From positions 1 through 64,000 of the forward strand of contig OX597836.1 in the NCBI GenBank assembly GCA_951406725.2: DNA of 64,000 bases, written 5' to 3'. The notes under the pieces were generated by a model, which was not told the DNA's origin, did no database searches, and saw nothing but the letters and a program-made list of their open reading frames with translations. The stretch is from Octopus vulgaris (taxonomy: Eukaryota). Shown here piece by piece: positions 6,257-40,891 of this stretch. Position 1 is the first letter of the stretch, and every line of letters starts with the position of its first letter. The translations under genes and the position numbers were made by a program.

Positions 6257-6347
6257 TTTTAGCTGATGAGTACGGGACATGTTTATATGCTGTAATTTTT
6301 GCAACTTTTAATAAAACCTGTCCTTGTATGAAACGATCGTACTAAAA
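6257..6347 (+). ncRNA. Type I hammerhead ribozyme with short palindromic stem III
   Basis: Stem I ttttag(6257-62)/ctaaaa(6342-47); core CTGATGA (6263-69); stem II gtacgggaca.../...tgtccttgtat; GAAAC (6330-34); palindromic acgatcgt; cleavage triplet GTA (6339-41). Confidence 0.88.
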
Positions 6348-6378
6348 ACCTATCCATTCTTGTTGCTTCATTCTCGCA

Positions 6379-6867
6379 TATATATATATACATATATATA
6401 TATATACATATATATATATATATATATATATATATATATATATATATATATATATATATATATATATATATATATATACTATATATATATATATATATAT
6501 ATATATATATATATATATATATATATATATATATACATATATATATATACATATATATATATACATATATATATACACATATATATATACATATATATAT
6601 ATACATATATATATACACATATATATATATTATATATATATATATATATATATATATATATATATATATATATATATATATACATATATATATATACATA
6701 TATATATATACATATATATACATATATATACATATATATATATACATATATATATATATATATATATATAATATATATATACATATATATATATACATAT
6801 ATATATATACATATATATATATACATATATATATATACATATATATATATATATATATATATATATA
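6379..6867. repeat. (TA)n array, right flank of the Penelope-like element
   Basis: About 490 bp TA/TACA repeat. Confidence 0.95.
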
Positions 6868-6916
6868 TTTGTAAAAAATGAAGTTCGAAAATGCTGCTGT
6901 ATTATACAATTTTTAA

Positions 6917-6987
6917 TTTTTATATATACATTATAACATGTTTCAGTTCCTGAAATGAACCTTATCAAAAAAAGTTATATATAAAAA
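6917..6987 (-). ncRNA. Putative minimal hammerhead variant (U3:A8 core)
   Basis: Minus strand reads TTGATAA-ggttc-atttcag-gaact-GAAAC-at-GTT-A. Stem II pairs and stem III is palindromic (aacatgtt), but the proximal stem I pairs poorly. Confidence 0.4.
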
Positions 6988-7296
6988 GAGACAGCTCATG
7001 CCGTCAAACACAAGAAATTCATTTATAATACACAACCGAGTCAGACATCTTAGATTTCATGTATAGTTGATATATAGTTCATGTATAGTTGATATATAGT
7101 TTGAAGTATATTTCAAAGTGTTCGATGCAGTGTCCCACGGTGGCGATACGTATTCAATACAAGAAACAGATCAAAGTGGTGGAAAGCGGTCAATACAGAA
7201 GATTGATGTTTCCGAAAGAGCGAGGAATTCATTTTTACCTTAAGCAATTGTGATGACCCATGGTGGAAGTTCGCTGGGTTCTATATATATATATAT

Positions 7297-7530
7297 GTTT
7301 TTGTTTTTGTTTTGTTTTTGTTTTTCCAGTTTCAGCTCTTGAGCTGTGGCCATGTTGGGGCACCGCCATTGTGGTGAAAGAGTACAGCAGGGATCACCAC
7401 CCCCTGCCGGAGCCTCGTAGAGCTTTTAGGTGTTTTCGCTCAATAAACACACACAACGCCCGGTCTGAGAATCGAAACCGCGATCCTGCGACCGCGAGTC
7501 CGCTGCCCTAACCACTAGGCCATTGCGCCT
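7297..7530 (-). mobile_element. tRNA-derived SINE
   Basis: Minus strand: A box TGGCCTAGTGG, B-box-like GGTTTCGATTC, 3' tail ggcggtgccccaacatggccacagc...gctgaaac followed by (AAAAAC)n. Confidence 0.75.
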
Positions 7531-36498: not shown

Positions 36499-37112
36499 TT
36501 GTCCTAAGCCGCCTGGACTACTGCTCCCAACTGTGGTCACCGCATAGTGTCAAACTAACCACAGAGCTTGAGACAATCCAAAGACATTTCACCAAGAGGA
36601 TTTCCACCATGAAAGAAAAGAACTATTGGGAGAGGCTTAGGGAACTCAATTTGTACTCCTTGGAACGAAGACGAGAGAGATATGCAGTGATATACATATG
36701 GAAAATCCTGGAGGGACTAGCACCAAATTTTAGAATTGAGAGCTGTTCCAATCCCCGTACAGGACGTCACTGTGTGGTGCCAAAGGTCCCGTCTTCCACA
36801 TCCAGGGTAAGGAGCAGATACTGTAATAGCCTGGGGTTCAGGGGCCCTCAGCTGTTCAACAAACTGCCAAGAAAACTAAGAGATCTACATGATGCGGATG
36901 TGGACATTTTCAAAAAACATCTAGACAAGCTGCTTTCCGGGATCCCAGATGAACCCACTGCAAGGTACGAAGGTAACCTAAGGGCAGCAGCTACAAACTC
37001 TCTCTTAGATCAGTGGCCAGCCACGGCAAACTGGACTTAGAGAGGGTAGCAACAAGGGCGGTGCCCCAGCATGGCCTCAGCCGGATGGCTGAAACAAGTA
37101 AAAGAGTAAAAG
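36499..37112 (+). mobile_element. 5'-truncated CR1/L2-like LINE 3' end between TA arrays
   Basis: [51 protein letters not shown]; tail gcggtgccccagcatggcc..ggctgaaacaagtaaaagagtaaaaga. Confidence 0.88.
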
Positions 37113-39268
37113 ATATATATATATATATATATATACATATATATATACATATATATATTATATATATATATATATATATTATATATATATATATATATAT
37201 ATATATATATATATATATATATATATATATTATATATATACATATATTATATATATATACATATATATATATATATATATATATATATATATATATATAT
37301 ATATATATATATATATATATATATATATATATATATATATATATATATATATATATATTATATATATATATATATATATATATATATATATATATATATA
37401 TATATATATATATATATATATATATATATATATATATATATATATATATATATATATATATATATATATATATATATATATATATATATATATATATATA
37501 TATATATATATATATATATATATATATATATATATATATATATATATATATATATATATATATATATATATATATATATATATTATATATATATATATAT
37601 ATATATATATATATATATATATATATATATATATATATATATATATATATATATATATATATATATATATATATATATATATATATATATATATATATAT
37701 ATATATATATATATATATATATATATATATATATATATATATATATATATATATATATATATATATATATATATATATATATATATATATATATATATAT
37801 ATATATATATATATATATATATATATATATATATATATATATATATATATATATATATATATATATATATATATATATATATATATATATATATATATAT
37901 ATATTATATATATATATATATATATATATATATATATATATATATATATATATATATATATATATATATATATATATATATATATATATATATATATATA
38001 TATATATATATATATATATATATATATATATATATATATATATATATATATATATATATATATATATATATATATATATATATATATATATATATATATA
38101 TATATATATATATATATATATATATATATATATATATATATATATATATATATATATATATATACATATATATATATATACACATATATATATATTATAT
38201 ATATATATATATATATATATATATATATATATATATATATATATATATATATATATATACATATATATATATATATATATATATATATATATATATATAT
38301 ATATATATATATATATATATATATATATATATATATATTATATATATATATATATATATATATATATATATATATATATATATATATATATATATATATA
38401 TATATATATATATACATATATATATATATATATATATATATATATATATATATATATATATTATATATATATATATATAATATATATATATATATATATA
38501 TACATATATATATATATATATATATATATACATATATATATATATATATATATATACATATATATACATATACATATATATATATATACATATATATATA
38601 TATACATATATATATATATATACATATATATATATTATATATATACATATATATATATATATATATATATATATATATATATATATATATATATATATAT
38701 ATATATATATATATATATATATATATATATATTATATATATATATATATATATATATATATATATATATATATATATATATATATATATATATATATATA
38801 TATATATATATATATATATATATATATATATATATATATATATATATATATATATATATATATATACATATATATATATATATATATATATATATATATA
38901 TATATATATATATATATATATATATATATATATATATATATATATATATTATATATATACATATATATATATATATATATATATATATATATATATATAT
39001 ATATATATATATATATATATATATATATATATATATATATATATATATATATATATATATATATATATATATATATATATATATATATATATATATATAT
39101 ATATATATATATATATATATATATATATATATATATACATATATATACATATATATACATATATATATATATATATATATATACATATATATATATTATA
39201 TATATATATACATATATATATATTATATATATATATATACATATATATACATATATACATATATATAC
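37113..39268. repeat. About 2.15 kb (TA)n array
   Basis: Mostly pure TA with occasional TT phase shifts and TACA variants. Confidence 0.97.
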
Positions 39269-39269
39269 A

Positions 39270-40690
39270 CCATCATCATCATCGTTTAACGTCCGCTTTC
39301 CATGCTAGCATGGGTTGGACGGTTCAACTGGGGTCTGGCAAGCTCGAAGGCTGCACCAGGCCAGTCAGATCTGGCAGTGTTTCTACAGCTGGATGCCCTT
39401 CCTAACGCCAACCACTCCGAGAGTGTAGTGGGTGATTTTATGTGCCACCGACACAGGTGCCAGACGAGGCTGGCAGACGGCCACGCTCAGATGGTGTTTT
39501 TATGTGCCACCGACACAGGTGCCAGACGAGGCTGGCAGACGGCCACGCTCGGATGGTGTTTTTATGTGCCACCGACACAGGTGCCAGACGAGGCTGGCAG
39601 ACGGCCACGCTCGGATGGTGTTTTCTTATGTGCCACCGACACAGGTGCCAGACGAGGCTGGCGAACGGCCACGCTCGGATGTTGTTTGTTACGTGCCCAC
39701 AGCACAGAGGCCAGTCGATGCGGTACTGGCTACGGTCACGTTCGGATGGTTTTCTTATGTGCCACCCACAAGGATACAAATTCCATTGATGTTCATCAAA
39801 GACTTTCTCCAAGTCAACGAAAGCCAGGTACAGAGTTTTATCTTTGGCTAGGTATTTCTCCTGCAGCTGTCTCACCAGAAATATGGTATCAGTGGTGCTT
39901 TTCCCTGGCACGAAACCAAACAGCATCTCATCTAGGTTGACTCGCTCTCTAATCAGTTGGGCTATGACCCTTTCTGTAACCTTCATTACCTGATCCAACA
40001 GCTTAATACCTCTGTAATTACTTGTATCTAGGGCATCACCTTTACCTTTGTAGCAGTTGACTATTATGCTACTGCACCAGTCATTGGGTATGACTCCTTC
40101 GTGTATCACCTGGTTTACTATACGGGTGACTAGGCTATAGCCGACACTGCCAGATATTTTGAGCATCTCAGCAGTAATTCCTGACGGGCCTGGGGCTTTC
40201 CCTGTCTTCAAGCTTCCAATTGCCTTAACTACCATGGAACTGTCAACTCGGATAGCTGGTCCCTCTATTGGGTCGACATTCGGCAGACTCTCTTTATCCC
40301 ATTCATTCTCTTTGTTGAGCAACCTTTCATAGTGGCATCTCCAAACCTCTCTCTTTGCATCCTCATTTAGCGCAAGTGAACCATCATCCATGCGAACACA
40401 TTTCTCTCCTACCACATCACGAATCTCTCTCACACACTGTCTTGCAACATGAAACACCTCAAGTCTTTGGTCCTCACGGCACAGAACATTGGCAAATTTT
40501 TTTCTTATCTGCTTCCCCTCTAGCAAAATATACCTGTCTCCTAGCTTCTCTTTTTGCAGTCTGATACAATTCCCTACTATCGCCTTTCCTCCAGTCCTTC
40601 CAAGTCTGTCTCTTGTCTCTAATAGCCCTGTCTACAACATTGTTCCACCACCACGTTACCCTGGGACGAGATGGGACTTTGCTCCATCAC
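39270..40690 (-). mobile_element. Internally deleted RTE LINE (partial RT fused to 3' UTR)
   Basis: KAPGPSGITAEMLK, YKGKGD, NYRGIKLL, FGFVPGKSTTDTIF, AFVDLEKVFD, then a jump into 3' UTR sequence; (GAT)n tail. Confidence 0.9.
39439..39690. repeat. About 62-bp tandem repeat x4 in RTE 3' UTR
   Basis: Unit tatgtgccaccgacacaggtgccagacgaggctggcagacggccacgctcggatggtgtttt. Confidence 0.9.
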
Positions 40691-40838
40691 AGATCATTAT
40701 ATATATATATATATATATATATATATATAATGCATTTCTATTTTGGATGTATTTGGGGTATTTAGTTGTGCTCATGACTTAGTATTTTGCTTCTTCCATG
40801 AGTATGAGTAAGTATCTCGTTTATTTCTTTACCACATT

Positions 40839-40891
40839 TATCACTGACAAAGGGAGGGTTCTTACGAACTAATCCTGAAATCAGTCCGATA
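40839..40891 (+). ncRNA. Decayed minimal hammerhead in a TA-flanked small element (about 40729-41117)
   Basis: tatca-CTGACAA-agg...cct-GAAAT-ca-GTC-cgata. Deviations from a canonical fold are C>T/G>A transitions. Confidence 0.5.

Follow-up and report, generated by a model that had tools for sequence, protein, structure and literature searches.

What do several small hammerhead-like folds with no obvious shared sequence have in common when they lie close together in octopus DNA? The question is raised by the first 64,000 nucleotides of contig OX597836.1 of Octopus vulgaris (GenBank assembly GCA_951406725.2, positions 1 to 64,000 of the forward strand), a stretch referred to here as the window. 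An earlier note had placed five such folds at 6.9, 8.3, 13.4, 22.5 and 40.8 kb, besides the ribozyme of a Penelope-like element (PLE), and all five are found at these coordinates and on the strands claimed. The five motifs are very probably minimal type I hammerheads in the pseudo-long terminal repeats (pLTRs) of five separate PLE families, two of which are ends of coding elements (A and D), one likely so (C), and two non-coding units that are likely copied in trans (B and E). The families are labeled by position: A at 6.9 kb, B at 8.3, C at 13.4, D at 22.5 and E at 40.8, with a sixth, F, at 53.4. The copies in the window, and the PLE next to them, are listed below. Clade marks follow PMC8557442; this source, together with PMC4209133, PMC7229834, PMC6765202, PMC8969392, PMC13282606, PMC6962438, PMC8967140 and bioRxiv 10.64898/2026.07.22.740005, is cited for the parts of its text that were covered.

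2052 to 4700, + strand: open reading frame (ORF) of a Hydra-type PLE, 882 aa, with reverse transcriptase (RT), DKT motif, CxCX5C linker and C-terminal GIY-YIG domain (clade marks per PMC8557442)
6257 to 6347, + strand: intact minimal type I hammerhead with C3:G8 in the 3′ repeat of the Hydra-type PLE
6874 to 7279, − strand: family A, a young autonomous PLE of the Neptune type, here a 5′-truncated 3′ end with (TA)n on its flanks; hammerhead at 6917-6987 with U3:A8 and a weak core-proximal stem I
8139 to 8461, both strands: family B, two copies of a ∼230-bp non-coding element placed head to head, with G3:C8; the right arm is at 8332-8382 (+) and the left is on the − strand, both damaged
13342 to 14038, − strand: family C, a 3′ end of greater age that probably comes from a PLE of the Hydra type, with a (TA)n end; hammerhead at 13446-13505, broken
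22443 to 22599, + strand: family D, a Penelope/Poseidon PLE of which this 3′ end is cut off inside (AAT)n and lacks the tRNA-like module; hammerhead at 22506-22551, G12>A
40734 to 41127, + strand: family E, non-coding and retrozyme-like, with 0.85 of its 478-bp unit present and (TA)n tracts on both sides; hammerhead at 40838-40897, G8>A
53137 to 53562, + strand: family F, missed by the earlier note, a non-coding retrozyme-like repeat of ∼355 bp present in 1.2 units; hammerhead at 53379-53425, core intact

Detection of the motifs and family consensuses

Standard searches do not recognize the five motifs in the window. There are no hammerheads among the 141 Rfam matches to the window at E ≤ 5. 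A strict hammerhead descriptor finds two motifs, of which that at 6263 is the PLE ribozyme and that at 53386-53418 is new, on a background of 0.02-0.05 per shuffle (60 block shuffles of the window), and a relaxed descriptor that allows an extra nucleotide returns the same two only. As single copies the five motifs fail both kinds of search; they were validated through family consensuses. Each family was searched in the window's own 2.8-Gb genome, where first-look candidate counts, all lower bounds, are at least 1040 for A, at least 1596 and at least 649 for B (two queries), at least 3426 for C, at least 2747 for D, at least 2539 for E and at least 648 for F. Consensuses were built from the best 30 copies of D and the best 25 of each other family.

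Each of the six consensuses has a full minimal type I hammerhead core (boxes N3 UGA N N8 A, GAAA and UH) with a stem I of 5-7 bp, a stem II of 4-6 bp and a self-complementary stem III (palindrome score 0.89-1.0). The 11-nt core is intact in 25/25, 23/25, 16/25, 19/30, 20/25 and 19/25 copies of families A to F in order; for E, position 16.1 was set with stem III read as shorter than in the later stem tabulation. The earlier note had described a short self-complementary stem III for most of the single copies, and the consensuses have one too. At 13.4 and 40.8 kb this stem is a palindrome of odd length (9 and 11 nt) and does not correspond to a decayed accggt. Positions 3 and 8 pair as U:A in A, as G:C in B and as C:G in C, D, E and F. 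All 16 tabulated hammerheads have a Watson-Crick 3:8 pair (C:G in 10, U:A in five, G:C in one), seven of them having come from a scan that requires such a pair. At E < 0.01, BLAST detects no similarity among the six families, the ribozyme region of the window PLE and that of a second Neptune family, and the elements are unrelated, as had been proposed.

The window copies are mostly worn. Among the five, only that of A matches its consensus; A and F keep an intact core, C has lost G8 and changed U16.1 to C, D and E carry the single core changes listed above, and B is damaged in both arms. Adjacency to (TA)n is seen in four families (19/25, 25/25, 22/25 and 22/25 copies, the query of B itself carrying a TA-like flank) and in 0/30 copies of D, so that the proposed insertion into TA microsatellites holds for four of the five families and not for the one at 22.5 kb.

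The earlier note had named two outcomes that would speak against it: consensuses without conserved cores or covarying stems, and a motif rate equal to that of shuffled AT-rich sequence. The cores are present in the consensuses, and the second outcome was not observed. A genome sample was taken as 100 stretches of 10 kb at even spacing (1.0 Mb); 19 motifs in it fit the relaxed descriptor, whereas 12 shuffles gave 1.5 on average. The same sample gives BLAST matches to B (11, both arms counted), D (five), C (three) and A (one), and none to E or F. The window, with two descriptor hits in 64 kb, is close to the genome sample (19 per Mb), and gives no hint of the local community that had been suggested. 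At least eight further hammerheads, unrelated or distantly related to the window families, were seen in flanks or in the 1-Mb sample (L041, L050, L052, L250, L267, L272, L281 and L298); two of them lie downstream of PLE endonuclease ends.

Families at the ends of coding elements

Copies of family A are 99% identical. A GIY-YIG ORF lies upstream in 10 of the 25 loci, ending ∼0.9 kb before the hammerhead, and one locus (L156) holds the full element with an ORF1 of 466 aa and an intact ORF2 of 765 aa that contains RT (E 1.1e-6), GIY-YIG (E 2.9e-6) and a CX4CX2C linker. The marks of Neptune elements, namely RT with C-terminal GIY-YIG, a CX2-5CxxC linker, an upstream ORF1, tandem pLTRs and a (TA)n target, are all present, and by these motifs family A is an autonomous endonuclease-positive (EN+) PLE of the Neptune type. 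The window copy is the last ∼400 bp of such an element; an inverted arm is found in 3/25 copies. A second intact Neptune family (L191-L220) encodes a protein 67-68% identical to that of A in 30/30 loci, and its hammerhead has U3:A8 with different stems. This family is apparently active; 55 of its 60 listed ORFs have no internal stops, and its 3′ untranslated region (UTR) is rich in (CTT/CAT)n. It was the only further Neptune family that a protein search with a Neptune relative revealed.

Family C ends in (TA)n in 22/25 copies, with an inverted arm in 5/25, and its upstream sequence runs at most ∼580 nt past the query into degenerate repeats. In the unbiased 1-Mb sample, the locus L250 has a Hydra-type endonuclease end ∼200 nt upstream of a relative of C. 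The same ORF end (79% identical; tblastn E 3.5e-12) lies upstream of C at a second locus, L093. Family C is probably the 3′ UTR of a Hydra-type PLE, the link being drawn from these two loci.

The layout of family D differs from the others. In the 30 copies picked by their hammerhead, a tRNA-like head with A and B boxes is followed by (AAT)n, the hammerhead and an optional tail of ∼30 nt; an inverted arm is present in 17/30. None of the 30 extends to an ORF, and a first reading of them as a free short interspersed nuclear element (SINE) was dropped once the end of a Poseidon ORF was found upstream of the heads. At one locus, a GIY-YIG C-terminus runs into the tRNA-like head. A genome search with this ORF end gives 1460 candidates, and in the 30 loci examined the tRNA-like module lies at most 140 nt downstream in 25 and the 3′ half of the hammerhead is present in 20. 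The longest ORF-bearing copies contain RT and endonuclease motifs plus GIY-YIG at the C-terminus, without a zinc-finger linker, which places them with Penelope/Poseidon; all ORF copies examined are broken. Family D is, with its clade assigned by motif, the pLTR or 3′ end of an autonomous Penelope/Poseidon PLE.

The A and B boxes of the D head fit the consensus quoted in PMC8969392. The best local match of the head among 26 host tRNA sequences is tRNA-Arg (z ∼7), while ARAGORN calls no tRNA in 16 D loci and Rfam gives no tRNA or hammerhead match in six. Of 20 short copies that retain part of the head, 13 begin between −15 and +8 nt from the tRNA-like +1, a pile-up that would fit the module being transcribed by RNA polymerase III (Pol III) and would also fit fold-back at a hairpin located there. 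This short hairpin, where the module begins ∼40 nt past the Poseidon stop codon (L346-L375), is also the center of many D insertions that are arranged head to head. Three D loci (L003, L004 and L022) have target duplications of 8-14 bp, as judged by eye, and at another (L009) a head-to-head B pair lies inside the (AAT)n tract of a D copy. A tRNA-derived SINE would be independent of the autonomous element and have a LINE-derived 3′ end; in D both the head and the 3′ end lie in the Poseidon 3′ UTR. OR1 and OR2 are tRNA-SINEs of octopus, for which no paper was found; the short D copies might correspond to one of them.

Non-coding families

Family B is a non-coding element ∼230 bp long. In 25/25 copies, as judged by eye, its 5′ side stops at a hard edge no more than ∼50 nt from the core; all copies have G3:C8, the flanks are (TA)n, and an inverted arm is present in 12/25. 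The five sequences in the genome that match its longest 5′ end exactly have nothing in common beyond it on the upstream side. No head-to-tail junction was found in 30 loci, the copies being single or head-to-head, and B therefore lacks the tandem arrangement of a retrozyme. The window pair is a damaged one that was re-amplified inside a young 2-kb composite repeat.

Families E and F are built from units of 478 and ∼355 bp, and the sequence upstream of each unit is the end of the family's own unit. More than one unit is present in 13/25 copies of E and 14/25 of F, with a longest array of 2.3 units; the longest ORFs are 58 and 85 aa. The 3′ ends of E fall at one of two sites 89 nt apart in 23 of 25 rows, two pairs of rows being the same insertion. 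Inverted arms occur in 12/25 copies of E and 9/25 of F. Both families have the features of retrozymes, namely a non-coding unit within 170-970 bp, arranged head to tail, with one type I hammerhead per unit. Two complete consecutive hammerheads are found only in a minority of insertions, and the unit junction exists in DNA too. Because B, E and F are non-coding, they must be moved by the enzyme of another element.

The description of the five motifs as non-autonomous PLE derivatives in non-coding elements stands for B and E, to which F is added, and does not stand for A, with ORF-linked copies and a full two-ORF element, for D, with an ORF end directly upstream, or probably for C. The longer ORF-linked copies and tandem copies that the earlier note had proposed to look for were found, the former in A, D and two loci of C, the latter in E and F. 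Its picture is right in spirit and wrong on autonomy, two and probably three of the motifs being ends of three PLE clades, and on the enzyme that it held responsible.

Proposed mechanism and alternative explanations

Across the families, hammerheads occupy the pLTR position, 3′ ends are fixed and 5′ ends vary, inverted arms occur, and the target preference is family-specific. In the mechanism proposed here, the RT-endonuclease of a PLE would nick AT-rich DNA, as inferred from an anole Poseidon element in vitro (PMC11167929), and cDNA would start a little downstream of the hammerhead, at either of two fixed sites, and in most cases stop early or fold back. Every insertion, however short, would then carry a hammerhead, one of two 3′ ends and often a 5′ inverted arm. 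Families with a zinc-finger linker (Neptune and Hydra) would go to (TA)n, and the Poseidon family to AT-rich sites, where the target is duplicated. Cutting by the ribozymes is predicted to require a dimer or the assistance of protein, in tandem source copies; for C, F and the second Neptune family, the predicted dimer with extended stem III is the minimum-energy fold. Dispersed single copies, such as those in the window, would be inert and decaying. That the motifs occur side by side here would reflect the abundance of TA tracts in the region and the large number of such families in the genome.

Several observations weigh against this explanation. The relative of C at L250 is only 77% identical to it, insertions separate the ORF end from C at L093, and there is no PLE ORF within 1.5 kb at any of the other 24 C loci. 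No ORF or partner linked to B, E or F emerges when the collected loci are screened with a profile of the window ORF together with 60 Neptune proteins, or from the protein search with the Neptune relative. The predicted dimer is not a hammerhead dimer for A, D, E or the window PLE. The hammerhead fold of A lies 1.0 kcal/mol above the minimum (−10.9 vs −11.9) and its stem I has U·U mismatches next to the core, so that the ribozyme of this active family may be weak or dead. That non-CpG changes are rarer in the core than outside (19/1274 vs 533/14637, five families summed) speaks for the explanation, but the copies were picked by similarity and the counts are small. The basis throughout is assembled contigs and folding, cleavage, transcript ends and circles being predictions.

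That the motifs are chance matches in AT-rich palindromic DNA is a negligible possibility. The failure of all five window copies in Rfam and descriptor searches is what such matches would look like, but the consensuses restore each broken position, the genome sample exceeds its shuffles more than tenfold, and the motifs occupy the pLTR position of ORF-bearing elements. Very improbable, too, is the explanation given by the earlier note, in which all five elements are non-autonomous and are moved in trans by Naiad-like proteins into TA microsatellites. B and E are indeed non-coding and in (TA)n, which PMC8557442 names as a preferred Naiad target. A and D, however, are ends of ORF-bearing Neptune and Penelope/Poseidon elements, which already refutes it for these two; C links to a Hydra-type ORF, and D avoids (TA)n. 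The ORFs of the window (Hydra-type), A and D combine a C-terminal GIY-YIG with hammerheads, whereas Naiads as described in PMC8557442 have an N-terminal GIY-YIG, a DKA motif and no canonical hammerheads, and are represented in cephalopods by remnants; a genome search for Naiad ORFs was not made.

It is rather unlikely that the short D copies form a free-standing SINE, a tRNA head with a borrowed PLE end and its own masters, apart from the ORF-bearing Poseidon element. The absence of ORFs from all 30 hammerhead-picked loci and from the three D loci of the unbiased sample would agree with it, as would the 13 of 20 starts near the tRNA-like start and a mean identity to the consensus of 96% in short copies vs 89% in ORF-linked ones. 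The 96% is, however, inflated, as the consensus was built from the same short copies, and the majority base differs between the two sets in 2 of ∼140 columns, both polymorphic in the short set. The head is integral to the 3′ UTR of the autonomous element in 25/30 loci, and fold-back at the hairpin could yield the pile-up. The converse idea, that B, E and F derive likewise from the ends of autonomous PLEs with unsampled coding parts, is distinctly improbable. It draws on the case of D, which seemed non-autonomous until a chance ORF-linked copy was found, and on the sampling of only the best 25 copies per family. Against it, the sequence upstream of the E and F units is their own end, with about half of the copies longer than one unit and none longer than 2.3, and the hard 5′ boundary of B has nothing in common upstream in the five copies with the longest 5′ ends. 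Hammerheads in the pLTRs of separate PLE families, some coding and some copied in trans, remain the preferred explanation.

Relation to known systems

The system as such is not under-described, as the earlier note had it. Many heterogeneous families of minimal hammerheads per metazoan genome, mostly single motifs from truncated PLEs, were described by Cervera and de la Pena in 2014 (PMC4209133). The PLE hammerheads in that work share with those of octopus the palindromic 15.2-16.2 region, an extra nucleotide between 9 and 10.1, a U3:A8 variant and pairs on opposite strands. Its covered text, supplementary figures being outside the scope, contains no cephalopod and no natural G3:C8 family, and four of the consensuses here differ from it in lacking the extra nucleotide or in having a non-G:C 10.1:11.1 pair. 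The EN+ clades of Craig et al. (2021, PMC8557442) likewise have a C-terminal GIY-YIG, a hammerhead in the pLTR, an optional tail, inverted 5′ arms and a zinc-finger linker associated with (TA)n targeting; to these, the octopus Poseidon family adds a tRNA-like module and (AAT)n between the stop codon and the hammerhead.

In the anole Poseidon element PAc (Frangieh et al. 2024, PMC11167929), two internal RT starts explain two fixed 3′ ends, and targets are AT-rich, as here. An engineered C3G/G8C pair partly restores cleavage in PAc, whereas in family B the G3:C8 pair is natural. Cleavage of PAc needed protein and was dispensable for insertion in vitro; the octopus families are known from sequence alone.

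Metazoan retrozymes without LTRs (PMC7229834; bioRxiv 10.64898/2026.07.22.740005) are, like E and F, non-coding, tandem-prone units with one type I hammerhead and a proposed mobilization by PLEs. The two studies derive them from pLTRs, and only one of nine Xenopus dimers cleaved in the second. E and F differ in that their hammerheads are of the minimal PLE type and their arrays reach at most 2.3 units, both being known from contigs. The SINE-like Sm-alpha and Sj-alpha elements of schistosomes (reviewed in PMC6765202) resemble D in having a Pol III-type promoter followed by a hammerhead. These elements are tandem and non-coding, whereas the D module is in the 3′ UTR of a coding Poseidon element and its short copies are dispersed with PLE-type inverted arms.

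Papers on cephalopod repeats report Penelope elements or hammerhead counts, with the link between them unmentioned in the covered text (PMC13282606, PMC6962438 and PMC8967140), and PMC3846280 does not mention tRNA. Within the literature covered, most subscription papers, supplements, Repbase and Dfam being outside its scope, there is no report of octopus PLE hammerheads or of a tRNA module in a PLE pLTR, including the Poseidon end repeat. A natural G3:C8 hammerhead family was also not found there, although the variant list of Lunse et al. (2017) may include G3:C8. Many minimal hammerhead families per genome (2014) and PLE-derived retrozymes (2020 and 2026) are thus already known; what may be new is the tRNA-headed pLTR, one unusual twist in one family of a familiar type of system, together with the natural swaps of the 3:8 pair.

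Host gene and other repeats of the window

Two larger features of the window enclose some of the copies.

7639 to 9580, strand not assigned: young ∼2-kb composite repeat with the damaged B pair and a family C fragment (8021-8096) as passengers
15030 to 58208, − strand: host SLC4 bicarbonate-transporter gene, with exons from ∼15.06 to 58.2 kb, the lower boundary being approximate

The proposed location in introns holds for D, E and F, which lie inside introns of the SLC4 gene. The composite repeat is amplified as a block, with at least 1 kb common to 24/24 other loci at 92-98% identity; it also holds a 107-bp tandem and other repeat pieces, and its left end may resemble a Helitron/Helentron-type terminus. 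An unrelated tRNA-headed SINE-like copy (7335-7530, −) lies directly upstream of the truncation point of family A. The window is the very start of the contig, and (TA)n tracts of ∼2 kb occupy 1-2022 and 37113-39267. Arrays of a 62-bp tandem are joined to RT fragments resembling long interspersed nuclear elements three or more times (39431-39770, 41633-41915 and 42094-44003).

Biological significance

The main finding is a published pattern of PLE hammerheads in a new animal. The descriptor count suggests ∼17 recognizable motifs per Mb above background, and so tens of thousands per genome. The role of the PLE hammerhead is still open, as it is dispensable for insertion in vitro (PMC11167929); the young U3:A8 and G3:C8 families, and the weak-stemmed core in an intact autonomous element, provide natural test cases. 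Tentatively, and as a plausible extension that may well fail, a Poseidon element could have acquired, within its end repeat, a Pol III promoter of tRNA origin, so that the repeat alone would be transcribed, and copied by the enzyme of the element itself, as a SINE-like passenger outnumbering its parent. Family B would then be a self-promoting mini-element of ∼230 nt with a natural G3:C8, and the genome a panel of 3:8 swaps by lineage, with U:A in Neptunes and C:G in Hydra and Poseidon. These lineage-swapped pairs could be used to ask whether PLE hammerheads cut or are protein-binding folds. If the tRNA-like module works as a Pol III promoter, it would show a Penelope element spawning SINE-like passengers, and a Poseidon element with such a captured promoter would be a direct route to the birth of a SINE with a Penelope partner.

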